NCBI GenBank assembly: GCA_026400755.1
Contig: JAPLOM010000011.1
Location: forward strand, 135,501 to 199,500
Origin: Alphaproteobacteria bacterium
GTDB taxonomy: Bacteria; Pseudomonadota; Alphaproteobacteria; CADEGL01
Length of the DNA: 64,000 nt
Direction: 5' to 3'
A model generated the notes under the pieces. That model saw nothing but the letters and a program-made list of their open reading frames with translations. It was not told the DNA's origin and ran no database searches. A program made the position numbers and the translations under genes. How positions within the stretch are numbered: position 1 is the stretch's first letter; each line of letters opens with the position of its first letter. Positions 1,306 through 27,203 of the stretch are shown in pieces.

Positions 1306-1475
1306 TTATAGGTTATAGACGATATTTTAAACTATTAATATAGGCTTTAGCCTTTAAACCAATTTTTAGCGCAGAGGGCGGCGCGACACCCTTCTCATCC
1401 TCTAGGCTTTGTTCCTTATTGGTTCTCCTTGCCGATCCCGCATAAGATCGCCGGTCTTCACCAACCGGGGGCTAA

Positions 1476-3000
1476 CTTGGTCGCGCGGGTCACGACGGTT
1501 GCGTTCCAGGGCATCGAGGCGCGCGCGGTGGACGTGCAGGTCCAGATGTCCTCGGGCCTGCCGGCCTTCACCGTGGTGGGGTTGCCCGACAAGGCCGTGG
1601 GCGAATCGCGCGAGCGGGTGCGCGCGGCGCTGACCGCCCTGGGCCTGGCGCTGCCGCCCAAGCGTATCACCGTGAACCTGGCGCCGGCCGACCTGTTGAA
1701 GGAAGGCAGCCATTTCGATCTCCCCATCGCGATCGCGTTGCTGGTCACGCTCGGCGTGTTGCCGGAAGAAGAAATCGCGCAATACGCCGCGCTCGGCGAA
1801 TTGTCCCTCGACGGACAGATCCGCGCCGTCGCCGGCGTGCTGCCCGCCGCCATCACGGCCGCGTCCCTCGGGCGCGGCTTGATCTGTCCGGCCGAGTGCG
1901 GCGGCGAGGCCGCGTGGGCCGGCGAGATCGACGTGTTGGCGACACCGTCGCTCCTCGCCCTCATCAATCATTTCAAGGGCACCCAGGTTTTGTCGCCGCC
2001 GCAGCGCGCATTGGCCGAGGACGGCGCACGCTATCCCGACCTGCGCGACATCAAGGGACAGGAGACAGCCAAGCGCGCGCTCGAGATCGCGGCAGCCGGC
2101 GGCCACAACATTCTGATGATCGGCCCGCCGGGCTCGGGCAAATCCATGCTGGCGCAACGCCTGCCTGGATTGCTGCCGCCGCTCGACGCCGGCGAAGCAC
2201 TGGAAGTGAGCATGGTGCACAGCGTGGCGGGCCTGCTCGATGGCGGGCGCCTCACGCGCCGCCGCCCGTTCCGCGATCCGCATCATTCGGCCTCGCTGCC
2301 CGCGCTTGTCGGCGGTGGTGTGCGCGCGCGGCCAGGCGAGGTGAGCCTGGCCCATAACGGCGTCTTGTTCCTGGACGAGCTGCCGGAGTTCCAGCGCGCG
2401 ACGCTCGAATCCCTGCGCCAGCCGATCGAAAGCGGCCGCGCCACCGTCGCGCGCGCCAACCACCACCTCACCTACCCCGCACGCTTCCAACTGGTGGCCG
2501 CGATGAACCCGTGCCGCTGCGGCCACCTGGCCGACGCTGCCTTCGCTTGCGGCCGTGCGCCCAAATGCGCGCAGGATTATCAGTCGCGCATCAGCGGCCC
2601 CATGTTCGACCGCATCGACCTGCATGTGGACGTGCCGGCGGTGAATCCCTCCGACTTGTCCCTACCGCCACCCGCCGAAGGCAGCGCAGAAGTGGCCGCG
2701 CGCGTGGCCCAAACGCGGGACATCCAACGCGCGCGTTACGCGAAGTACGACTCCGCAACGCCGATCCGCGCCAACGCGCAAGCCGACGGCGAATTACTGG
2801 AAGAAGTCGCTGGCCCCGACGCGGACGGCCGCAAGCTCCTGACCGATGCGGCCGAACGGTTCAAACTGTCCGCGCGCGGCTATCATCGCGTCCTGCGCGT
2901 GGCGCGCACCATCGCCGACCTGATGGGCGCGCCTTCCGTCGCGCGCGGCCACATCGCGGAAGCGCTGGCCTATCGCAAGATCGCGTTGGGGCGAGAGTAA
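1476..3000 (+). CDS. comM: YifB/ComM family Mg-chelatase-like AAA+ ATPase
   Basis: The ORF track gives 1429-3000. The family N-terminus ...VARVTTVAFQGIEA fits a TTG start at about 1476. Walker A (GPPGSGKS), the sensor/arginine-finger region and a C-terminal magnesium-chelatase domain are all present. Confidence 0.85.
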
Positions 3001-3125
3001 GGCCGCGACCCTTGGCCTTTCTGGAACCAGATCGATGAAAGCGGTCTTCCCCATATGAAGCACGGCACAGGCCTTGATTTTGTTTGGGAGGCGTAGGCTG
3101 TGGATCGTGCAAGTGGAGAGGCAAC

Positions 3126-3773
3126 ATGACCGAGGCGTTGACGATCTGGACATTCGATTGGGTGCCCGAAGGCACGCCCGGTCCCCGCGGTTATGTTCGA
3201 GACTTGAGACTGCGCTGGGCATGCGAAGAAGCGGGCTTGGACTACAAAGTCCGGTCTGTTCCGTTCAAGAACCGCGGAGCGGAGCACTTCGCGCGTCAGC
3301 CTTTCGGCCAAGTGCCTTTCCTGGAAGACAGAGGCATCACCGTGTTCGAAAGCGGCGCTTGTCTTCTGCATCTCGCGCGAAAAAGTGAAAAGCTGATGCC
3401 CCACGATCCCGAGGGCGAGGCAGAGACGCTGGAATGGACGATTGCCGCGCTTAATTCCATCGAGATGGTCACGGTGCCTTGGTGGTTCATCGGCCTGTCC
3501 AATAACACGAACAACCCGCTCGAAAGCTGGATGCTGCAGCGCTTGAAACACCTGGAAGCTGTGTTGGCGCAGCGTGAGTGGCTTGCCGCCGGACAGTTTA
3601 CCGTTGCCGATCTCCTGATGGCAGACGTGCTTCGGATCCCGAAGGTCAGGGCTGCCGGTGATTTTCCAGCAATACGATCTTACGTCGATCGAGTCTGCGC
3701 GCGCCCTGCTTTCAAACGAGCCTACGACGGCCAGATGGCGCATTTCGCTAAGGGCGATAAGCTCAGCCGGTAA
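3126..3773 (+). CDS. glutathione S-transferase
   Basis: The ORF track gives 3084-3773. An internal ATG at 3126 (MTEALTIWTF...) gives the typical roughly 215-aa GST. The thioredoxin-like N-domain and helical C-domain pattern are present. Confidence 0.8.
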   Translation: MTEALTIWTFDWVPEGTPGPRGYVRDLRLRWACEEAGLDYKVRSVPFKNRGAEHFARQPFGQVPFLEDRGITVFESGACLLHLARKSEKLMPHDPEGEAETLEWTIAALNSIEMVTVPWWFIGLSNNTNNPLESWMLQRLKHLEAVLAQREWLAAGQFTVADLLMADVLRIPKVRAAGDFPAIRSYVDRVCARPAFKRAYDGQMAHFAKGDKLSR

Positions 3774-3816: not shown

Positions 3817-4914
3817 ATGTCCCGCCTTGTCCTCGTTTCCCTCGGCACGTTGAACGGTACGGTCCTGGAGGCCGTGGCGCGCAGCGGCGTGTTCGACGAG
3901 ATCCTGGTCGCAAGCCGCAACGCCGATTACGGGCGGCGCAAGGTGAACACGGCGCGCGTGGGCGCGGCCGTGGTGGGCAAGTTTCCCCGCATCGAATTCG
4001 TGCCCTTCGACCTGAACGGCGCCAACGCAGGCGAAGCGTTGAAGCGCATGGAGGCAGACGTGGTGGTGACCGCGCCGAGCCTTCTGCCCTGGTGGGCGGT
4101 CGACAAGCTGGGCGGCGAGAAGGGTGAGGTGGCGCGCACGGCGCCCTTCGCCACGTTCGTGGCCTGTCACGTGGCGCCCATGCTGGCCTTCCGCCGCGCG
4201 TGGGTGCAGGCGCGGCCCCACGCGGCGTGGATCAACCTGTCCTATCCCGACGGGGTGAACGCGGTGCTGACGCGCACGGGGGCCGGCCCCTTGTGCGGCA
4301 TCGGCAACGTGGAGGAGGCCGTGCCCAAGGCGCGCTTCGCCGTGGCCGATGCGCTGGGCGCGCCGCCGGAAGAGGTCGAGGTGCGCCTGGTCGCGCCCCA
4401 CGCGCTCGAATATTTCCTCTATGCCGCCGAAACGGCGAAGGAATTGCCGCCGTGCCTGGTGAAGGCGACGTGGCGCGGGCGCGACGTCTCGGCCGAAGCA
4501 CGCGCCGGTCTCTTCACCCCCATGCCGATCCTCTACGACATGGATTTCAACCTGTTGACCCAGGCCTCGGCCGTGCGGTTTCTGACCACCTTCATGGCGA
4601 AGGAAAACTCGCTGGTTCATGTGCCGGGGCCGGACGGACGCGTCGGCGGCTATCCCATGCAGGCGGGCAACCGTCGCATCGCCCTCGACCTTCCGCCCGA
4701 ATGGAGCGAAGCCGAGGCCATCGCCATGAACGAGAAGGCCCTGCATTGGGACGGCGTGGCCGGCATCACGAGCGACGGCATCATCCAGTTCACCGACAAG
4801 ACCGCCACCGCCCTGCGCACGCTTCTCGGCCGCAGCGTCTATCAGCTTTCGCCGCACGAGGCGTCGTCGATGGCGAACGAATTGCTGGCCGCGGTGGGCG
4901 CGAAGAAGTCCTAG
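3817..4914 (+). CDS. conserved hypothetical protein, possibly a saccharopine-dehydrogenase-like Rossmann fold
   Basis: 365-aa high-GC ORF with coding-like composition. The product call rests only on a weak resemblance at the N-terminus. Confidence 0.45.
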   Translation: MSRLVLVSLGTLNGTVLEAVARSGVFDEILVASRNADYGRRKVNTARVGAAVVGKFPRIEFVPFDLNGANAGEALKRMEADVVVTAPSLLPWWAVDKLGGEKGEVARTAPFATFVACHVAPMLAFRRAWVQARPHAAWINLSYPDGVNAVLTRTGAGPLCGIGNVEEAVPKARFAVADALGAPPEEVEVRLVAPHALEYFLYAAETAKELPPCLVKATWRGRDVSAEARAGLFTPMPILYDMDFNLLTQASAVRFLTTFMAKENSLVHVPGPDGRVGGYPMQAGNRRIALDLPPEWSEAEAIAMNEKALHWDGVAGITSDGIIQFTDKTATALRTLLGRSVYQLSPHEASSMANELLAAVGAKKS

Positions 4915-4987
4915 CGTTTATCCCGATATTAGGCAGCAAGCATACCAAGCAACCCCTCGGTATATGTGTGATCGGGCGATCGCGCCC

Positions 4988-5623
4988 TTATAGTCGTTCT
5001 TCTTGTTCAGAATTTGGTTGCTCCGGGAGCTCGGGAATTGCGCTTTGACCTCCCCTAGGATCAGGCCTGATAAGGCGTGACATGCGCCTCGCGGGCTTTA
5101 TATGGCCATCACGCAATAACGCCGCCATGAGCCGCAGAAAACGAACGTGTCCTCGGTATTGGATGGCCCAATTTTCATTGGTTATAGCCGGGGTCGTGAT
5201 CCTGAGCTTCTTCAAGGTTTCGTAAAGCCCAACAATCGCCGGAACACAACGTTCGTAATCAGGCCCGCGAAGAGATCGCAGACCAGTTTCGATCAGCGTG
5301 GCGAGATGTACGCAGTCAGCACCGACTTTCTGGTGCCCTTTCTCGGCTCGCCCATCGATTCGCCTAAGAATGGCGTCCAGCCAAACCCCCGCCACTAGCG
5401 CGAGAACGGCCGTTGAAATCATCAGCGCCGAGGTGCTGAGCGCGGCGCTCAGGAAAGGGCTTGGGCTTGTCGCACTTTCTTGTGCAGTTGGCTGAAGAAG
5501 ATCGAGAAAAAGGACATCCCAACCTTGGGACTCCGCGACCTTCTCAACGTTGAGATAAAAGACTGGGAGGAAAAACAACCCTAGTGCCGATAGCCCCAGC
5601 CGCACGCTTGGCGATAGCTGCAT
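4988..5623 (-). CDS. hypothetical protein with two N-terminal TM helices, lying in a lower-GC islet
   Basis: 211-aa ORF. Two hydrophobic helices (LGLSALGLFFLPVFYL and ALMISTAVLALVAGVWLDAIL) precede a charged soluble region. It sits 46 bp downstream of oxyR on the same strand. Local GC is roughly 50-55 % against about 67 % in the flanks. No family was recognised. Confidence 0.3.
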   Translation of the reverse strand: MQLSPSVRLGLSALGLFFLPVFYLNVEKVAESQGWDVLFLDLLQPTAQESATSPSPFLSAALSTSALMISTAVLALVAGVWLDAILRRIDGRAEKGHQKVGADCVHLATLIETGLRSLRGPDYERCVPAIVGLYETLKKLRITTPAITNENWAIQYRGHVRFLRLMAALLRDGHIKPARRMSRLIRPDPRGGQSAIPELPEQPNSEQEERL

Positions 5624-5669
5624 GCCGGAAACCTTAACATAGCCTCCAGGGTCAGGTGCATTTGCTACC

Positions 5670-6581
5670 TCACTTCGCCTTCTCCGCCAGTCGCTTCAGT
5701 TCACTCGCCAGCAATTCGAACTCCGCGCGGCGCGCGGTGCCGCGGCGCCAGACCAGGCCCAGGTCGCGCGAGGCGCGCGCGCCGTCCAACGCGCGGGCGA
5801 CCAGCTGGGTGCCGCGCAGGATGCCGGCGTCGATCGCGATCTGCGGCAACAGCGTGACTCCGAGGCCGTTATCCACCATCTGCACCAGCGTGTGGAGGCT
5901 GGTGGCCTCGACACCCGCGCTTTCGCGCCGGTCGGCGAGCGCGCAAGCATCCAGCGCATGGCCGCGCAGGCAATGCCCATCGCGCAGGAGCAACAGGGTT
6001 TCGTGCTGGAGCGAAGCGGGCGGCACGGGCGCCGATTTCGCTAGCGGATGATCCTTGGGGCAAACCAGGCTGAACGGATCGCGCGCGACCAACGCCGTCT
6101 CGGCCGAGGGGATGTCGTAGGGCAAGGCCAGGAGCAGCACGTCGAGCTTGCCGTCGTTCAATTGCTCGACCAGGCGCGCGGTCTGGTCCTCGACCAAAAG
6201 GAGCTGGAGCGCGGGGTATGCGCGCCGCAAGCCCGGCAGGACGCGCGGCAGGAAGAACGGGCTGATCGTGGGGATGACGCCAAAGCGCAGGGGCCCCGTG
6301 AGCGGCTTGCCCCGCGCGCGGGCCAGCTCGGCCAGAGCCTCGGCCTCGTCCAGCAAACGCCGCGCGAGCTCAACCACCTCGCGCCCCAAGGGCGTGAAGA
6401 CCACCCGCCGTTGCGTGCGGTCGACCAGGGCCGCGCCGAGCGTCTGCTCCAACTCCTTGAGGCTGGCGCTGAGCGTCGATTGCGTGACATGGGCGGCCTT
6501 GGCCGCGCGGCCGAAGTGACCGTGTTCGGCCAAGGCGGCCAGGTGGCGAAGCTGCTTCAGGGTGGGAAGATTTGTTGCCAT
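5670..6581 (-). CDS. oxyR: LysR-family hydrogen-peroxide sensor/regulator OxyR
   Basis: 303-aa LysR-type transcriptional regulator with an N-terminal HTH. The redox-cysteine region GHCLRGHALDACA parallels E. coli OxyR GHCLRDQAMGFC (C199/C208). It is divergent from ahpC. Confidence 0.85.
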   Translation of the reverse strand: MATNLPTLKQLRHLAALAEHGHFGRAAKAAHVTQSTLSASLKELEQTLGAALVDRTQRRVVFTPLGREVVELARRLLDEAEALAELARARGKPLTGPLRFGVIPTISPFFLPRVLPGLRRAYPALQLLLVEDQTARLVEQLNDGKLDVLLLALPYDIPSAETALVARDPFSLVCPKDHPLAKSAPVPPASLQHETLLLLRDGHCLRGHALDACALADRRESAGVEATSLHTLVQMVDNGLGVTLLPQIAIDAGILRGTQLVARALDGARASRDLGLVWRRGTARRAEFELLASELKRLAEKAK

Positions 6582-6704: not shown

Positions 6705-7244
6705 ATGCTGACTATCGGAGACAAGCTTCCGTCCTTTGACCTGAAGACCGTGGTGTCCACCGACATCAAGACGGCCTTCACCCAGACGACGGACAAGAGC
6801 GCCAAGGGCAAGTGGACCGTCCTGTTCTTCTGGCCCAAGGACTTCACCTTCGTCTGCCCGACCGAGATCGTGGCCTTCGGCAAGCTGTCCAAGGAGTTCA
6901 AGGACCGCGACGCCGTCATCTACGGCATCTCGGCGGACACCGAGTTCGTCCACCTGGCCTGGCGCCAGAACCACGCCGACCTGAAGGATCTGTCGATCCC
7001 GATGTTGGCAGACACGAAGCGCGAGCTGTCGACCGCGCTCGGCGTGCTGCACAAGGACGAGGGCGTGCCGCTGCGCGCGACCTTCATCGCCGACCCGGAG
7101 GGGATCATCCGCTTCGTTTCGGTGAACGACCTGAGCGTCGGCCGCAACCCGCAGGAAGTCCTGCGCGTGCTGGACGCCTTGCAGACCGACGAGCTTTGCC
7201 CCTGCAACTGGCAGAAGGGCGAAGAGGTTCTGAAGGTCGCCTAA
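6705..7244 (+). CDS. ahpC: alkyl hydroperoxide reductase C (peroxiredoxin)
   Basis: Peroxidatic Cys motif FTFVCPTEI, resolving Cys region LCPCNW, 179 aa. Confidence 0.9.
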   Translation: MLTIGDKLPSFDLKTVVSTDIKTAFTQTTDKSAKGKWTVLFFWPKDFTFVCPTEIVAFGKLSKEFKDRDAVIYGISADTEFVHLAWRQNHADLKDLSIPMLADTKRELSTALGVLHKDEGVPLRATFIADPEGIIRFVSVNDLSVGRNPQEVLRVLDALQTDELCPCNWQKGEEVLKVA

Positions 7245-7305
7245 CGCCAACGAATAACCCTCGGCGGATTCGTCCGCCGGGGCTTTGGCCCCAAGGAGTT
7301 TTGCC

Positions 7306-7848
7306 ATGTCGCTCGCCGCGCTCGCCGATCGTCTGCCCGACTACGCCAAGGACCTGAAGCTCAACCTGAGCTCGCTGGCGTCCGAAGTGTCGCTGACCGA
7401 GCAGCAGCGCGCGGGTGCGTTCGTGGCCTCGGCCCTGGCCAGCCGCAACGCGGTGGTGAGCGAGGCCGTGTTGGCCGAGTTCGGCCCCAAACTGTCGCCC
7501 GAAGCGCTGACCGCCGCCAAGATTTCGGCCGCGATCATGGCCATGAACAACATCTATTACCGCTTCGTGCACCTGGCCTCCTCGCCCGACTACAAGACCA
7601 TGCCGGCGAAGCTGCGCATGAACGCGGTGGTCAAGCCCGGCGTGGACAAGTTGGATTTCGAATTGTGGTCGCTGGCCGTCTCGGCCGTGAACGGCTGCGG
7701 CATGTGCATCGATTCGCACGAGAAGATTTTGCGCCAGGCCGGCGTCTCGGCCGAGGCCGTGCAGTCGGCCGCGCGCATCGCGGCCGTGGTGCATGCCGTG
7801 GCGGCGACGCTGGAAGGCGAAGCGGTGGCGGGCGCACAAGCCGCCTGA
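7306..7848 (+). CDS. ahpD: alkylhydroperoxidase AhpD (carboxymuconolactone decarboxylase family)
   Basis: CxxC-containing motif [11 protein letters not shown]. The ORF track starts at 7285, but the ATG at 7306 ([13 protein letters not shown]) is the family-typical start. It lies directly downstream of ahpC. Confidence 0.8.
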
Positions 7849-7873
7849 CGCCGAATCGATTTTTGGAAATGAG

Positions 7874-7910
7874 AGCGGCCGATCCGGGAAACCGGGTCGG
7901 CCGTTTTCTT
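7874..7910 (+). terminator. rho-independent terminator of ahpCD
   Basis: A 12-bp GC stem, CGGCCGATCCGG-gaaa-CCGGGTCGGCCG, is followed by TTTTCTTT immediately after the ahpD stop. Confidence 0.6.
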
Positions 7911-8272
7911 TAGTCCTTGGCGATCATCCGGCCGAGCTTCTTGCCGGCAAAGACATGGATGTGGAGGTGCGGGACCTCCTGACCCGAATCCAGCCCGCAG
8001 TTGGACAGGATGCGGTAGCCCGGCTCGACCGCGCCGATGTCGCGCGCGATCTTGCCGACCGCACGGAACAGGGCGGCGATCTCAGCATCCGACGCCTTCT
8101 CGGCGAAATCGTCCATCGAGACGTAAGCGCCCTTGGGGATCACCAGGATATGGGTGGGCGCTTGCGGTGCGATGTCATGGAAGGCCAGCGTATGCTGGTC
8201 CTCATGCACCTTCTTGCAGGGGATCTCGCCGCGCAGGATGCGCGCGAAGATGTTGTTGTTGTCGTATGCCAT
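7910..8272 (-). CDS. HIT (histidine triad) family hydrolase
   Basis: MAYDNNNIFARILRGEIP... with the HIT motif HLHIHV. The start ATG was located at 8270-8272. Confidence 0.85.
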   Translation of the reverse strand: MAYDNNNIFARILRGEIPCKKVHEDQHTLAFHDIAPQAPTHILVIPKGAYVSMDDFAEKASDAEIAALFRAVGKIARDIGAVEPGYRILSNCGLDSGQEVPHLHIHVFAGKKLGRMIAKD

Positions 8273-8285
8273 CGCCGCTCTCCCG

Positions 8286-8645
8286 CTATGCCTTCTTCCT
8301 GGACGGTTTAATCTTGGCGCCGCGCGCGCGTTTCTCGGCGATGCCGGAGATGCCTTCGCGCCGCGCCAGCTCGGCCCAGACTTGCGGCGGCGCGATGCCG
8401 GCATCCGCCCACAGCACAAGCAAGTGATAGAGCACGTCGGCGCTTTCGCGCACGAGGCCGTCCTTGTTTCCCGACACCGCGTCGATCACGGCCTCGGCGG
8501 ATTCCTCGGCCAGCTTCTTCGCGATGTGCTTGGTGCCCTTGGACAGAAGCTTGGCCGTATAGGATTTTTCCGGATCGCCGCCGCGCCGCTTCTTGATCGT
8601 GGCGGAGAGCGCATCCAGCACCCGCGCGTCATGCTTCTTCGGCAT
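8286..8645 (-). CDS. hisE: phosphoribosyl-ATP pyrophosphatase
   Basis: [21 protein letters not shown]...SYTAKLL... is the HisE signature. The start overlaps the hisF stop by 4 bp. Confidence 0.85.
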   Translation of the reverse strand: MPKKHDARVLDALSATIKKRRGGDPEKSYTAKLLSKGTKHIAKKLAEESAEAVIDAVSGNKDGLVRESADVLYHLLVLWADAGIAPPQVWAELARREGISGIAEKRARGAKIKPSRKKA

Positions 8646-9409
8646 CAGCGTGTCTCCCGCACGAGCAAGCCGGCCTCGGCCAGGTGCTTTTTCGCGTCCG
8701 CGATCGAGAAGGTGCCGAAGTGGAAGATCGAGGCCGCCAGCACGGCAGAGGCGTGGCCTTCGCGCGCGCCCTCGACCAGGTGATCGAGCGTGCCGACGCC
8801 GCCAGACGCGATCACCGGCACGCGCACGGCGTCGGCGATGGCGCGCGTCAGCGGGATGTCGAAGCCCTTCTTCGTGCCGTCGCGATCCATGGAGGTGACC
8901 AGCAATTCGCCCGCGCCCAACTCCGTCATGCGGCGCGCCCATGCCACCGCATCGATCCCGGTCGCGTTACGCCCGCCATGGGTGAAGATCTCGAAGCGGC
9001 CGGGCGAGACCTGCTTGGCGTCGATGGCGACGACGATGCATTGGGTGCCGAATTTCTCGGCCGCCTCGCCCACGAATTCCGGCCGCTTCACCGCCGCCGT
9101 GTTGATCGAAACCTTGTCGGCGCCCGCGAGCAACAGGCGGCGGATGTCTTCCAGCTCGCGCACGCCACCGCCGACGGTCAGCGGCATGAAGCAGCGTTCG
9201 GCCGTGGCGCGCACCACGTCCAGCAGGATGTCGCGGTTGTCGGAGCTGGCCGTGATGTCGAGGAAACACAATTCGTCGGCGCCTGCCGCGTCATAGATGC
9301 GCGCCTGCTCGACCGGATCGCCCGCGTCGACCAGGTTGACGAATTGGACGCCCTTCACGATGCGGCCGTCCTTCACGTCCAGGCAGGGGATGAGGCGGAG
9401 CTTGAGCAT
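8645..9409 (-). CDS. hisF: imidazole glycerol phosphate synthase cyclase subunit
   Basis: The 254-aa translation [23 protein letters not shown]... is canonical HisF. Confidence 0.95.
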
Positions 9410-10131
9410 TTAGGCCGCCAGCGCCAGCGCGCGCTTCAAATCGACGCGGCCGTCATAGATAGCGCGGCCGACGATGACGCCCGCGATGCCGTCCTTCTCG
9501 TGCGCGCGCAGGGCGGTGATGTCGTCGATGGTCGAGACGCCGCCGGACGCGATCACCGGCACGGGCAGGCCCTTGGCCAGCGCGACCGTGGCTTCGATGT
9601 TGGGGCCGCCCAGCACGCCGTCGCGGTCGATGTCGGTATAGACGATGGCGGCGACGCCCGCGCCGGCCAGGGCGTCGGCCAGCTCGCGCGCCGTGGTTTC
9701 GGTCGCGCGCGTCCAGCCGTCGACGGCGACCTTGCCTTTACGCGCGTCGATGCCGACCACGATGCGGCCTGGGTGGGCGCGCGCGGCTTCGCGCACGAGT
9801 TCGGGGTTGGCGATGGCGGCCGTGCCCAGCACCACGCGGCGCACGCCGGCCTCGAGCCAGGCTTCGATGCGCGCGCGGTCGCGGATGCCGCCGCCCAGTT
9901 GCACGGGCATGGCGACGGCTTTGAGGATTGCGCTGACGGCGCTCGCGTTCTTGGGCAGGCCGGAGACGGCGCCGTCGAGATCGACGACATGGAGCCAGCG
10001 CGCGCCGGCCGCCTCGAACGTGCGCGCCTGCGCGGCCGGATCGTCGTTGTAGATGGTGGCGTCGTCCATCGCGCCCTGGCGCAGGCGGACGCAGCGCCCG
10101 TCCTTCAGGTCGATGGCGGGGAAGACGATCA
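9410..10131 (-). CDS. hisA: ProFAR isomerase
   Basis: [17 protein letters not shown]... lies inside a longer ORF; ATG at 10129-10131. Confidence 0.9.
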
Positions 10132-24354: not shown

Positions 24355-24947
24355 GGTTCGACCAGCTTATGTCCGCGCAGGAAATCAAGGAGCGGCAGGA
24401 GCGGCAGTCCAAGGATGGTGAAATAATCTCCTTCGATGCGCGAGAAAAGCTGCGCGCCCAGCCCCTCGAGTTGGTAGGCGCCGACCGACCGGCACGCGGC
24501 ATCGCCGACGCGCGCAAGATATCCGTCCAGGAATGCATCGGTGAAGGGGCGCATATGCAGCGTCGCCACCTCGGTGCGATGCCACAGCCGCGCATCGCCG
24601 CGCGCAACCACCACGGAGGCCGTCAGCCGGTGCGCGCGGCCACGCAAGGCCTGAAGCTGCCGGCGCGCGGCGGCTACGTCCGGTGGCTTGTCGTACATGG
24701 CGCCATCGCAATCCAGCACCTGATCAGCCCCGATCACGAAGGCATCCGGATGGCGCAGCGAAACCTTGCGCGCCTTCAGCTCAGCCAGCGTTTCCGCGAT
24801 GGCGGCCGGCGAGGCATTCTCGCCCTTGAGGCTGTCCTTGACCGCGTCCTCGTCCACGCCTGGCGCTTCGGCGGAAAAGACCACGCCTGCGACCGTGAGC
24901 ATTGTCCGGCGCGATTGGCTGGTAGACGCCAGGATCAGATTGCTCAT
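24351..24947 (-). CDS. maf: Maf-like nucleoside-triphosphate pyrophosphatase
   Basis: MSNLILASTSQSRR... ; 198 aa. Confidence 0.85.
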   Translation of the reverse strand: MSNLILASTSQSRRTMLTVAGVVFSAEAPGVDEDAVKDSLKGENASPAAIAETLAELKARKVSLRHPDAFVIGADQVLDCDGAMYDKPPDVAAARRQLQALRGRAHRLTASVVVARGDARLWHRTEVATLHMRPFTDAFLDGYLARVGDAACRSVGAYQLEGLGAQLFSRIEGDYFTILGLPLLPLLDFLRGHKLVEP

Positions 24948-25762
24948 CCAACCCGCCGCTGGCGTTCATGGTGGAGCTGTATGATGGCGGCCGCCGTCTC
25001 CTCGATCGAGCGGCGCGTCACATCGATGACCGGCCAACCATGCTCGGCACACAAGCGGCGCGCGGCCTCGACTTCGGCTTTCACGGCATCGAAGTCGACA
25101 TACTCCGTCTCGGCGTCGTGATCGATCATGCGCAGCCGGTTGCGCCGGATGGCGACCAGACGCTGCGGATCGTTGGTCAGGCCGACGATCAGGGGACGAT
25201 CGGCCTTCAGAAGCTCTTCAGGTGTTGGGAAGCCTGGCACCAGCGGGATATTGGCGGCCTTGATCCCGCGATTGGCCAGATAGATGCAAGTCGGCGTTTT
25301 CGAAGTGCGCGACACGCCGACCAGAACCACATCGGCCTGATTCAAATCGTGGGTCGATTGACCGTCATCGTGGGTCAGAACGAAGTTCATGGCCTCGATG
25401 CGGTGGAAGTATTCGGAGTCGAGCGCGTGCTGGCGCCCCGGCCGGGCGCCGCCCTGCATGCCGAAATGCATAGCCAGCGTGCGGATCACGGGGTCCAGGA
25501 CAGCGATACACGGAACGTCGAGGCGTTCGCAGGCCGCGCGCAGGCGCGTGCGCAGGTGATCGTTCAGGACGGTGAACATGACGATGCCGGGCTCGGCCTC
25601 GATCGCGCCCAACACCTTGTCGAGCTGGCGTTCGGTGCGCACCATCGACCAGAGATGCTCGATCGTCCGCACCTCCTCGAACTGAACCAGGGCGGCGCGC
25701 GCGACGTTGCCGACCGTCTCGCCGGTCGAGTCGGAAACCAAATGAAGATGGAAGGTTTTCAT
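24944..25762 (-). CDS. DUF299 / pyruvate-phosphate dikinase regulatory protein-like kinase-phosphorylase
   Basis: MKTFHLHLVSDSTGETV...VGVSRTSKTP (P-loop); 272 aa. It is the homologue class of Caulobacter CC0001 / Rickettsia RP001, which flank Cori. Confidence 0.85.
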   Translation of the reverse strand: MKTFHLHLVSDSTGETVGNVARAALVQFEEVRTIEHLWSMVRTERQLDKVLGAIEAEPGIVMFTVLNDHLRTRLRAACERLDVPCIAVLDPVIRTLAMHFGMQGGARPGRQHALDSEYFHRIEAMNFVLTHDDGQSTHDLNQADVVLVGVSRTSKTPTCIYLANRGIKAANIPLVPGFPTPEELLKADRPLIVGLTNDPQRLVAIRRNRLRMIDHDAETEYVDFDAVKAEVEAARRLCAEHGWPVIDVTRRSIEETAAAIIQLHHERQRRVG

Positions 25763-26138
25763 CCCGGCCCCCCTGTTGGCCGTTTCGCGATGTCGGGGAT
25801 AAGTAACCGGTTATCCTCAGGCACCCGCAATCGCCCCCCGCTGGCCCGGATTCGCTCCGAAAGGAATCGGCCTCTGGACAAATACATAGCATGGTCCCGC
25901 AAGACGCGTATAAACTGGCTTGCGGGAAAGTTTTTCACGGAATTCGCGTTCCAAGGCGATGCTAGGTAAGGGTTTGCAGACAGGCTTTCTGGATTCGATA
26001 CCGGTCATCCTGGTTTGAGTCCGATGTTTTAGCTGGCACTGCATTTTCTGTGGGCGAATCCAGGTGGCAGAATAATCACCGTTATCCCAGAGACAACTAC
26101 TGCCACTACCTAAGAATCTTAAATACTCTTTAAGGAAG
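25763..26138. other. probable chromosomal replication origin (Cori/oriC) in the DUF299-hemE divergent gap
   Basis: A 376-bp non-coding gap with the lowest GC in the window. DnaA-box-like 9-mers are at about 25811-25819 (TTATCCTCA, 8/9), 25794-25802 (inverted, 7/9) and 26082-26090 (TTATCCCAG, 7/9). An AT-rich stretch at 26105-26135 holds a TTAA-N7-TTAA motif at 26119-26133. Synteny matches Caulobacter and Rickettsia Cori (hemE / DUF299). Confidence 0.6.
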
Positions 26139-27203
26139 ATGGTGAACGCAAAACCTTCCATACCGGGTCTGGATGAAACGCGCTTTGCGGCCGCATTGGC
26201 TGGCAAGCAAGTAGACCGGCCACCCTTTTGGTTCATGCGCCAGGCTGGGCGCTATCTGCCGGAGTACCGGGAGATCCGCGCCAAGGTTCCGGACTTTCTG
26301 GCGCTCTGCTACACGCCCGAATTGGCGGCGCGGGTGACGCTGCAGCCGATCGAGCGGTTCGGCATGGACGCGGCAATCTTGTTTTCTGACATCCTCGTGG
26401 TGCCGCATGGGCTTGGTGCCGGCGTGCGCTTCGTCGAGGGAGAAGGGCCGCAGCTTGACCCAGTGCGTGGAGCGAAGGATTTGTCGCGCCTGAAGCCCGA
26501 GGCCGTGGCCGCCGTCGTGGCGCCGGTTATGGAGACAGTGCGCCTGGTCCGGCAGCAGCTCGACCCTAAAATTGCGCTGATCGGCTTTGCAGGGGCGCCC
26601 TGGACTGTCGCGACGTACATGGTCGAAGGAGGGTCCAGCCGGGATTTTGCCGCGACCAAGGCATGGGCTTATGGCGATCCGCAGTCGTTCTCGCGGCTGA
26701 TCGACATGCTCGTCGAGGCGACGATTTCCTATCTCGACCACCAGATCGCGGCCGGCGCGGGTGCAGTGCAGTTGTTCGATACCTGGGCAGGGGCGTTGAG
26801 CCCGGATCAGTTCGAACGGTGGGTGATCGATCCGGCACGCCGCATCGTGGATGGAGTCCGCAGGCGACATCCGAGTGTTCCTGTCATCGGATTTCCGCGC
26901 GGCGCAGGGTCCCTCTATCGGCGCTATGTGGAAAAAACGGGCGTGAACTGCGTGGGTATCGACACAGCGGTCGATCCTGCCTGGGCGGCTGAAACACTAC
27001 AGCCGATGGGGACCGTACAAGGCAATCTTGATCCCATGGCGCTGGTCGCGGGCGGTGCGACCATGCGCGCGGAAGCCGAGCGGATTCTGATTGCGCTCGG
27101 CAAGGGTCCGTTCGTCTTCAATCTCGGCCATGGCATTGTGCCGCAGACAGCGCTTGCCCATGTGGCCGAGTTGTCAGCGCTGATCAAGAACTGGCGGGCC
27201 TGA
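26139..27203 (+). CDS. hemE: uroporphyrinogen decarboxylase
   Basis: 354 aa with PFWFMRQAGRYLPEY and the other HemE signatures. AAGGAAG RBS. Confidence 0.95.
   Translation: MVNAKPSIPGLDETRFAAALAGKQVDRPPFWFMRQAGRYLPEYREIRAKVPDFLALCYTPELAARVTLQPIERFGMDAAILFSDILVVPHGLGAGVRFVEGEGPQLDPVRGAKDLSRLKPEAVAAVVAPVMETVRLVRQQLDPKIALIGFAGAPWTVATYMVEGGSSRDFAATKAWAYGDPQSFSRLIDMLVEATISYLDHQIAAGAGAVQLFDTWAGALSPDQFERWVIDPARRIVDGVRRRHPSVPVIGFPRGAGSLYRRYVEKTGVNCVGIDTAVDPAWAAETLQPMGTVQGNLDPMALVAGGATMRAEAERILIALGKGPFVFNLGHGIVPQTALAHVAELSALIKNWRA

Follow-up and report, generated by a model that had tools for sequence, protein, structure and literature searches.

Insertion sequences (IS) of the IS1595 family make 8-bp target duplications, according to a passage of PMC8101967. 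Some IS, termed transporter IS (tIS), carry passenger genes, and a passage of PMC11891212 (citing Siguier et al. 2009) names ISNha5, with its transcription regulator, as an example from the IS1595 family. The categories recognised in PMC3129680 include partial IS copies and transposase-less cassettes bounded by inverted repeats (mobile insertion cassettes, MICs), with IS231-MIC231 as an example of a MIC (citing De Palmenaer et al. 2004). The present analysis concerns one small locus in a 64,000-nucleotide stretch of DNA from an alphaproteobacterium (contig JAPLOM010000011.1, positions 135,501 to 199,500); the whole of this stretch is called the window. At positions 4915-5669, between a gene for a 365-aa protein and oxyR, the window contains an islet of low GC content with one gene in it. 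The islet is very probably a decayed, internally deleted derivative of an IS1595-family tIS, and its gene would be an accessory gene of the element itself. Such a feature is ordinary: it is a partial IS derivative that lacks a transposase and resembles a MIC. This reading explains the low GC content of the islet, why its gene looked like an orphan and why the islet is sharply bounded.

The GC content of the islet is 0.550, the lowest among all 755-bp segments of the 64 kb (mean 0.647, sd 0.032), and that of the flanking genes is 0.685 (3817-4914) and 0.697 (oxyR). The minus-strand open reading frame (ORF) 4988-5623, which encodes 211 aa, is the sole long open frame in the islet. Across the islet, one stop codon falls in the frame of the ORF versus 6-13 in each of the other frames, and a stop-free run of this length appeared in 0.16% of 5000 dinucleotide-preserving shuffles (p = 0.0016). 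The first-pass annotation, which was made by a model from the sequence alone, had described the low-GC islet and an ORF with two N-terminal transmembrane (TM) helices starting 46 bp past the end of oxyR, and both descriptions were confirmed: the ATG of the ORF (5623) is separated by 46 bp from the stop codon of oxyR (5670-5672) on the same strand. It had also named random codon usage as a finding that would refute its reading. The GC content at the first, second and third codon positions of the ORF (0.65/0.46/0.55) looks coding, but the third-position value (GC3) is far under that of the neighbouring genes (0.87-0.93), and the codon usage is foreign. The element and its parts, with the left and right terminal inverted repeats abbreviated IRL and IRR, are as follows.

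4924 to 5677, minus strand (the orientation of the two-TM gene): internally deleted, transposase-less derivative of an IS1595-family transporter IS, 754 bp, marked by both terminal repeats, an empty site in a relative and foreign GC content.
4916 to 4923, no strand: degenerate 8-bp sequence GTTTATCC, the probable left copy of the target-site duplication, abutting the tip of the element and matching the empty-site sequence GCTTCTCC at 6 of 8 positions.
4924 to 4946, plus strand: terminal inverted repeat of the IRR type, CGATATTAGGCAGCAAGCATACC, pointing inward, assigned by its match to the inverted-repeat consensus.
4975 to 5058, plus strand: what probably remains of the 3' part of a DUF6471 gene, which converges on the ORF and has lost its 5' two-thirds; GDRALIVVLLVQNLVAPGARELRFDLP* resembles the DUF6471 C-terminus SRGGFSATFFVQCLIAIGVRELRLSD* (asterisk, stop).
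4988 to 5623, minus strand: IRL-proximal accessory gene for a two-TM protein with a predicted cytoplasmic four-helix bundle at its C-terminus, supported by 46 homologues, conserved motifs and an AlphaFold2 (AF2) model.
5655 to 5677, minus strand: terminal inverted repeat IRL, with the inner 16 nt kept and the outer 7-nt tip mutated.
5678 to 5685, no strand: probable right copy of the target-site duplication, CCTTCTCC, within the oxyR coding sequence and matching GCTTCTCC at 7 of 8 positions.

The ends of the element are recognisable despite their divergence. Together with the C that precedes it, CGATATTAGGCAGCAAGCATACC differs from the inverted-repeat consensus at 4 of 24 positions, which is the best match on both strands of the 64-kb window; the next best has 8 mismatches. 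At the opposite end, the inner part of IRL, GGTGCATTTGCTACCT (5655-5670), has a single mismatch to the repeat in 16 positions. The layout in the window is CTAGC / GTTTATCC / 4924-5677 / CCTTCTCC / GCCAG, and the corresponding layout in a relative, L008 (the loci compared are given L numbers), is CTAGC / GCTTCTCC / GCC. Judging from this alignment, the one copy of GCTTCTCC at the empty site is the probable source of GTTTATCC as well as CCTTCTCC. The first-pass annotation had seen neither a tRNA nor a flanking repeat at the islet. The former statement holds, as a tRNA search found none near the islet, but the latter does not, given the inverted repeats at 4924-4946 and 5655-5677 and the degenerate 8-bp duplications at 4916-4923 and 5678-5685. 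These features escaped an unaided reader and a generic repeat finder, which did not detect the terminal inverted repeats, because they are too diverged.

The site that received the element lies between two convergent genes.

5670 to 6581, minus strand: oxyR, encoding a LysR-type protein with helix-turn-helix (HTH) and substrate domains, for which OxyR is the best NCBIfam model.
3817 to 4914, plus strand: gene for a 365-aa protein whose family was not recognised, on the other flank; in L008 its stop codon overlaps that of oxyR in CTAG.

With the 365-aa gene as an anchor, three relatives were recovered (L007, L008 and L009) whose flanks are 88-90% identical to those in the window. L008 has an empty site, in which the 365-aa gene and oxyR abut and their stop codons share one CTAG, followed by C-GCTTCTCC-GCC. 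The interval in L007 is occupied by approximately 1.2 kb of GC-rich DNA (1893-3115) with two DUF1801 genes and a palindromic GC-rich stretch, and GCTTCTCC is single there; the interval in L009 (~660-1745) holds Sel1-repeat genes. On the oxyR side, homology between the relatives and the window restarts precisely with CTTCTCCGCC; on the opposite side it ends just past the TAG of the 365-aa gene, and the islet is therefore a lineage-specific insertion. The horizontal acquisition proposed in the first-pass annotation is thus borne out by the absence of the islet from these relatives and by the IS1595-family termini. The comparison of the region 3' of oxyR that had been recommended there returned one empty site and two sites with other cargo. 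Genes seem to have been gained and lost repeatedly between the 365-aa gene and oxyR. The insertion also altered the host gene. The last two codons and the stop of oxyR (5670-5678) are made up of sequence from the element tip and the duplicated target, and the C-terminus of OxyR reads AEKAK* in the window versus AEKR* in the comparison with L007 and L008.

The family association of the ORF was revealed by its homologues, for which nine genomic contexts were obtained. The homologue lies inside an IS1595-type element in eight of the nine contexts, and beside oxyR in none. The same gene order recurs in six of them (L015, L020, L023-26, L029, L031/32 and L033-35): the two-TM gene, a convergent HTH gene of ~75 aa, a divergent IS1595 transposase gene and small ORFs. 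The HTH partner belongs to DUF6471 (PF20075; E = 1.8e-32 in Pfam), and its 3' end overlaps the two-TM gene by 4-86 bp. In L032, the DUF6471 slot is occupied by an unrelated XRE-type HTH gene with zero overlap with the two-TM gene. The transposase, which consists of Zn_ribbon_IS1595 and DDE_Tnp_IS1595, was found in L015, L020, L023-25, L029, L031/32 and L033-35. Gene callers had missed it in the Tistlia and Tara loci, where tblastn located it in the expected slot. A reverse ORF of 123-152 aa is present close to the far end of the elements in LIUR22, L029 and L031/32.

The homologous loci also share termini. A 23-nt terminal motif, CGG(C/T)ATTAGGTAGCAA(A/G)C(G/A)CACC, lies 50-115 bp upstream of the two-TM gene in seven loci, and in L015 it lies ~1.1 kb upstream, with an extra 315-aa gene between. 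The motif recurs in inverted orientation at the far end of the elements in L015, L023, L029 and L031. Perfect 8-bp repeats flank the elements in L029 (GAGGCGTT), L023 (GGTCCTTC) and L031 (GACGGTGC); the duplication in L015 is either CGAAACCC or GAAACCCG, since the junction is ambiguous by one base. Based on the shared inverted termini and the perfect 8-bp repeats, the intact blocks, of 3.0-4.8 kb, are therefore IS1595-family elements with passenger genes. The element tip, CGGnnTT, would fit the end sequence of the ISNha5 subgroup. The termini of intact elements are self-complementary hairpins (CGGCATTAGGT...ACCTAATGCCG; L023 1018-1048, L029 6941-6971), with folding z-scores of -3.6 to -5.0 in intact copies versus -0.9 at the mutated end in the window (5648-5677). 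A short palindrome, TGCCGAGGAGACTCGGCA, is conserved between IRL and the start of the two-TM gene in L023 (1041-1092), L027, L028 and L020; it does not occur in the window copy, which has a shorter leader.

The L029 element (6941-9949) splits the Mg-chelatase-like gene comM/yifB, and its 8-bp repeats bound the gap in comM exactly. One half aligns to residues 16-260 of the product of the intact comM in the window (1429-3000), the other to residues 256-518. An element of the same type is found in L033 (~6922 onward), in another lineage and in the opposite orientation, at the same comM codon (~256-260). The shared insertion codon in L029 and L033 suggests a target preference. Related elements on plasmids of cultured alphaproteobacteria, Rhodovastum (L036, 3406-4906) and Skermanella (L037, 3510-5037), have a similar tip, a transposase and a reverse ORF of ~145 aa, without the two-TM/DUF6471 pair. 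The pair is therefore an add-on in a subset of the elements.

At the level of sequence comparison, the identity of the element, its boundaries, its empty site and the association of the gene family with such elements are thus documented. So are its insertion at a definable target site, the loss of the transposase and the survival of an accessory gene that is intact and foreign in composition. The intact relatives resemble an IS1595 tIS such as ISNha5 in having a Zn_ribbon_IS1595 plus DDE_Tnp_IS1595 transposase, inverted repeats, 8-bp duplications and a small regulator-like gene. The window copy shares the inverted repeats and carries passenger genes between them (the two-TM gene and the DUF6471 remnant). 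It differs in its mutated IRL tip, in its size, approximately a quarter of a full element, and in the loss of the transposase; tblastn found no transposase anywhere in the 64-kb window, so the copy does not qualify as an autonomous IS1595 member. Similar losses are seen in two other decayed copies. L030 (1-1376, compared with L029 6988-10017) corresponds to the L029 element minus 1,648 bp that include the transposase gene and the 5' part of the DUF6471 gene, with IRR kept. The 1.6-kb difference between L029 and L030 was also considered as an IS with its own ends and was rejected, as the segment has no inverted repeats and L030 retains the true IRR; it is an internal deletion. L027 (1331-2097) has a degenerate IRL and an intact two-TM gene, without the HTH gene, the transposase and IRR. 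The two-TM gene has thus been kept intact after loss of the transposase in the window, in L027 and in L030.

The window copy resembles a MIC in its inverted-repeat boundaries, its lack of a transposase and its coding passenger gene, and it is the scar of a past transposition. It is possible, although the weight of evidence is on the other side, that the cassette moved in its present short form through a transposase acting in trans and may still be mobilisable. Both termini are present, the flanks resemble a duplication of the exact 8-mer of the empty site, for which both ends must have been functional when the element inserted, an independent short derivative exists in L030, and MICs are a recognised class (PMC3129680). 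However, none of the other loci compared has a short copy with this deletion junction, the IRL tip is mutated and its hairpin weakened, the 64 kb contain no transposase, and an internal deletion in situ accounts for the structure equally well. MICs are mobilisable in trans and are often present in multiple copies, whereas the window has a single copy (no second copy of the element was found in the 64 kb) with a damaged end, for which current mobility is unlikely. The window element is probably immobile.

The plus-strand segment 4975-5058 is the probable remnant of the DUF6471 partner gene. It overlaps the 3' end of the ORF by 71 bp, like the intact pairs, and ends within 1-2 codons of the aligned stop. 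In a position-restricted test with a position-specific scoring matrix (PSSM), which replaced a non-significant unrestricted test with a hidden Markov model (HMM), the segment scored 21.0, a value reached by 0.1% of 3000 shuffles, and its score ranks third of ~128,000 positions in the window. The DUF6471 partner is clear in other lineages. The window fragment, of ~25 codons at the homologous position, is not matched by the Pfam DUF6471 model (65 positions), the resemblance being limited to the C-terminal ~25 residues. The first-pass annotation had offered a non-coding RNA antisense to the ORF as an alternative content of the islet. An Rfam scan gave no match at E<=1 and so no support for that suggestion; the sequence antisense to the 3' end of the ORF is most likely the DUF6471 remnant.

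Several observations weigh against the interpretation of the islet as an IS1595-family derivative with its own accessory gene. The DUF6471 remnant is short and was recognised post hoc, and in the unrestricted full-domain HMM test it scored -0.9 bits, which is within the range of shuffled sequences and not significant. The outer tip of IRL (5671-5677) reads CACTTCG instead of the expected AATGCCG. Only 3 of these 7 positions match, and the exact right-hand junction is for this reason placed by inference. GTTTATCC and CCTTCTCC, the two copies of the target duplication, have only 5 of 8 positions in common. Fold searches with the model of the two-TM protein returned generic helical bundles only, which pointed to no function. 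Sibling contigs have zero substitutions in the two-TM gene (L004 versus the window; L023 versus L024-26), and selection on it is thus unmeasurable.

The protein encoded by the ORF is, as judged by homology, a member of an uncharacterised family of at least 46 members that is not in Pfam. It has two hydrophobic segments (residues ~6-26 and ~57-87) that are helical in the AF2 model. The net charge is -4 for the loop between them and +7 for the C-terminal part, suggesting a topology with both termini in the cytoplasm. Scans of the ORF against Pfam, NCBIfam, PHROGs and PADLOC gave no match, and a Pfam scan of 32 aligned family members gave only noise, with no family matched. A word-indexed search of 5.8 billion clusters had no hit beyond the ORF protein, which is listed as hypothetical in an Alphaproteobacteria metagenome-assembled genome (MAG), and the same kind of search with the family alignment returned only three proteins. 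An exhaustive HMMER search with a cut-off of E<1e-3 was needed to reveal the family; it recovered 46 homologues, 8 of them below 1e-10, that are 27-35% identical, mostly 190-230 aa long and aligned mostly over nearly their full length. The statement in the first-pass annotation that no family was recognisable thus remains true for curated libraries, but the orphan status that it implied does not.

The family alignment (A3, 32 members) has three motifs: YLNIEKxAExxGWD following TM1, GxWxDALLRRxD at the end of TM2, in which G78 and W80 are invariant, and YLxxVGxLLxxGHxxEAK in the C-terminal part. All invariant and near-invariant residues of A3 are present in the window protein. Nearly all family members are singleton metagenomic clusters, and one is from a Tistlia sp. 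MAG. The ORF gene and its context are identical on contigs from several independent metagenome samples (99.3-100% DNA identity). Plasmid and phage records contained no tblastn match to the ORF, and a viral-contig scan found nothing. When supplied with the family alignment, AF2 gave a model with a mean confidence (pLDDT) of 82.9; the single-sequence model was poor. The likeness of the C-terminal domain to the four-helix-bundle domains of histidine phosphotransfer (HPt), CheA-P1 and FliS type is structural only.

These data bear on the suggestion that the frame is open by chance, the DNA being non-coding and in decay, or that the islet yields a non-coding RNA. The failure of curated libraries, the poor single-sequence model and the lack of close homologues in the word-indexed search would fit such an explanation. 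The improbable length of the frame, the 46 homologues with shared motifs and fully conserved key residues, the confident model obtained with the family alignment and the negative Rfam scan all contradict it. A spurious ORF is effectively refuted by the homologues, the conserved motifs and the AF2 model, and only a vanishingly small likelihood is left to either version of this explanation.

The position of the gene next to oxyR had led to the proposal of a link to the peroxide response. The ORF would in that case be a true member of the OxyR response, recruited downstream of oxyR and co-transcribed with it. The arrangement permits this, as the gene is on the same strand only 46 bp past the stop codon of oxyR, the promoter and terminator scan found nothing above chance, including any terminator-like site separating oxyR from the ORF, and the element hairpin that might stop read-through is weakened in the window. 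Genes for a CMD/AhpD-like protein and DsbA are also present upstream of one distant homologue, L026. However, the DsbA and CMD genes in L023-26 are outside IRL and hence belong to the host flank. The adjacency to oxyR is lineage-specific: the gene is not at this position in L007 or L008, none of the nine homologue contexts is linked to oxyR and eight are within mobile elements of the IS1595 type, and the codon usage of the ORF is foreign. A peroxide role is therefore very improbable. The two-TM protein most likely serves the element and not host peroxide defence. The ORF would here be an orphaned passenger, for which expression by read-through from oxyR is plausible in view of the weakened terminal hairpin and the scan result for terminators.

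A very probable course of events can be given for the IS1595-family derivative. A tIS of the IS1595 family would have landed on its 8-bp target, GCTTCTCC, at the junction of the adjoining stop codons of oxyR and the 365-aa gene. The ancestral element would have comprised, in order, IRL, the two-TM gene, the convergent DUF6471 HTH gene, the DDE transposase gene, small ORFs and IRR. An internal deletion, before or after insertion, would have removed the segment from the middle of the DUF6471 gene to ~25-50 bp short of IRR, leaving a cassette of 754 bp, which retains the two ends of the element and a single intact gene. Later, the outermost part of IRL would have been remodelled, and it would now supply the last two codons of OxyR and its TGA stop.

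In an intact element, the two-TM protein would serve the element itself, most likely together with the DUF6471 regulator. It might, for instance, be tethered to the membrane and modulate transposase control or the maintenance of the element. The HTH gene is divergent from the transposase gene and ~100 bp from it, and thus probably controls the transposase. The two-TM gene is convergent and overlapping with the HTH gene, so antisense interference between the two may occur. A different role for the two-TM and DUF6471 genes would be that of a toxin-antitoxin-like or exclusion pair that stabilises the element, with the membrane protein as the toxic or excluding partner. The tight pairing of an HTH and a membrane gene, the convergent overlapping 3' ends that permit antisense control, and the restriction of this add-on to a subset of related IS are in keeping with such a pair. 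It is nonetheless improbable, since the intact two-TM gene persists without the HTH partner in the window, L027 and L030, which is unexpected for a toxin that must be neutralised; neither PADLOC nor PHROGs gave a match, and in L032 the HTH is of an unrelated XRE type without overlap. Somewhat less improbable, although still unlikely, is that the two genes form an undescribed accessory module with a function of its own, such as a membrane-tethered switch that, by convergent and overlapping transcription, tunes the HTH repressor and through it the transposase, or with a benefit to the host; in the window, the oxyR transcript may have captured it, and domestication may be under way. A module with its own function would explain the intact two-TM gene after loss of the transposase in three independent relics.

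Recognition of the islet as an IS1595-family derivative converts an apparent oxyR-linked orphan membrane gene into a defined transposon scar and removes a false lead to the peroxide response. The locus also shows an IS landing exactly between abutting stop codons, by which the C-terminus of a regulator was rewritten and the gene was not destroyed. As a by-product, the analysis brought to light an unannotated protein family, with 46 or more members, and an accessory module (two-TM gene plus DUF6471 gene) that recurs in IS1595 tIS. This is useful for the annotation of IS. A literature search for the function of DUF6471 found no paper, and, as far as that search showed, DUF6471 is given a genomic context here for the first time. 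The repeated survival of the two-TM gene after loss of the transposase is a point of interest.

Some additional features of the window were noted. On the minus strand at 5634-5651, GGAGG is followed 2 nt later by an out-of-frame ATG, which opens a 19-codon upstream ORF overlapping the annotated start of the two-TM gene. The spacing between GGAGG and ATG is too short for a typical ribosome-binding site, and this arrangement is probably meaningless. The patch with the second-lowest GC content in the window (25763-26138, ~25.8-26.1 kb) is intergenic, between genes at 24944-25762 (minus strand) and 26139-27203 (plus strand). It was considered as a further copy of the element and rejected, being a plain region between divergently transcribed genes.

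Finally, the flank opposite oxyR has features of its own. The 365-aa gene has host-like codon usage and is well conserved, with no match in Pfam or NCBIfam. The only relatives recovered outside its own clade are 33-34% identical and come from Acidobacteriota/Terriglobia (L010, L011) and from unassigned metagenome contigs (L013, L014). Upstream of it, a plus-strand glutathione S-transferase gene (3084-3773) has an intermediate composition (GC 0.585, GC3 0.67). In L008, an ORF of 167 aa (5485-5988) is found in place of the glutathione S-transferase gene, indicating a second variable spot nearby.

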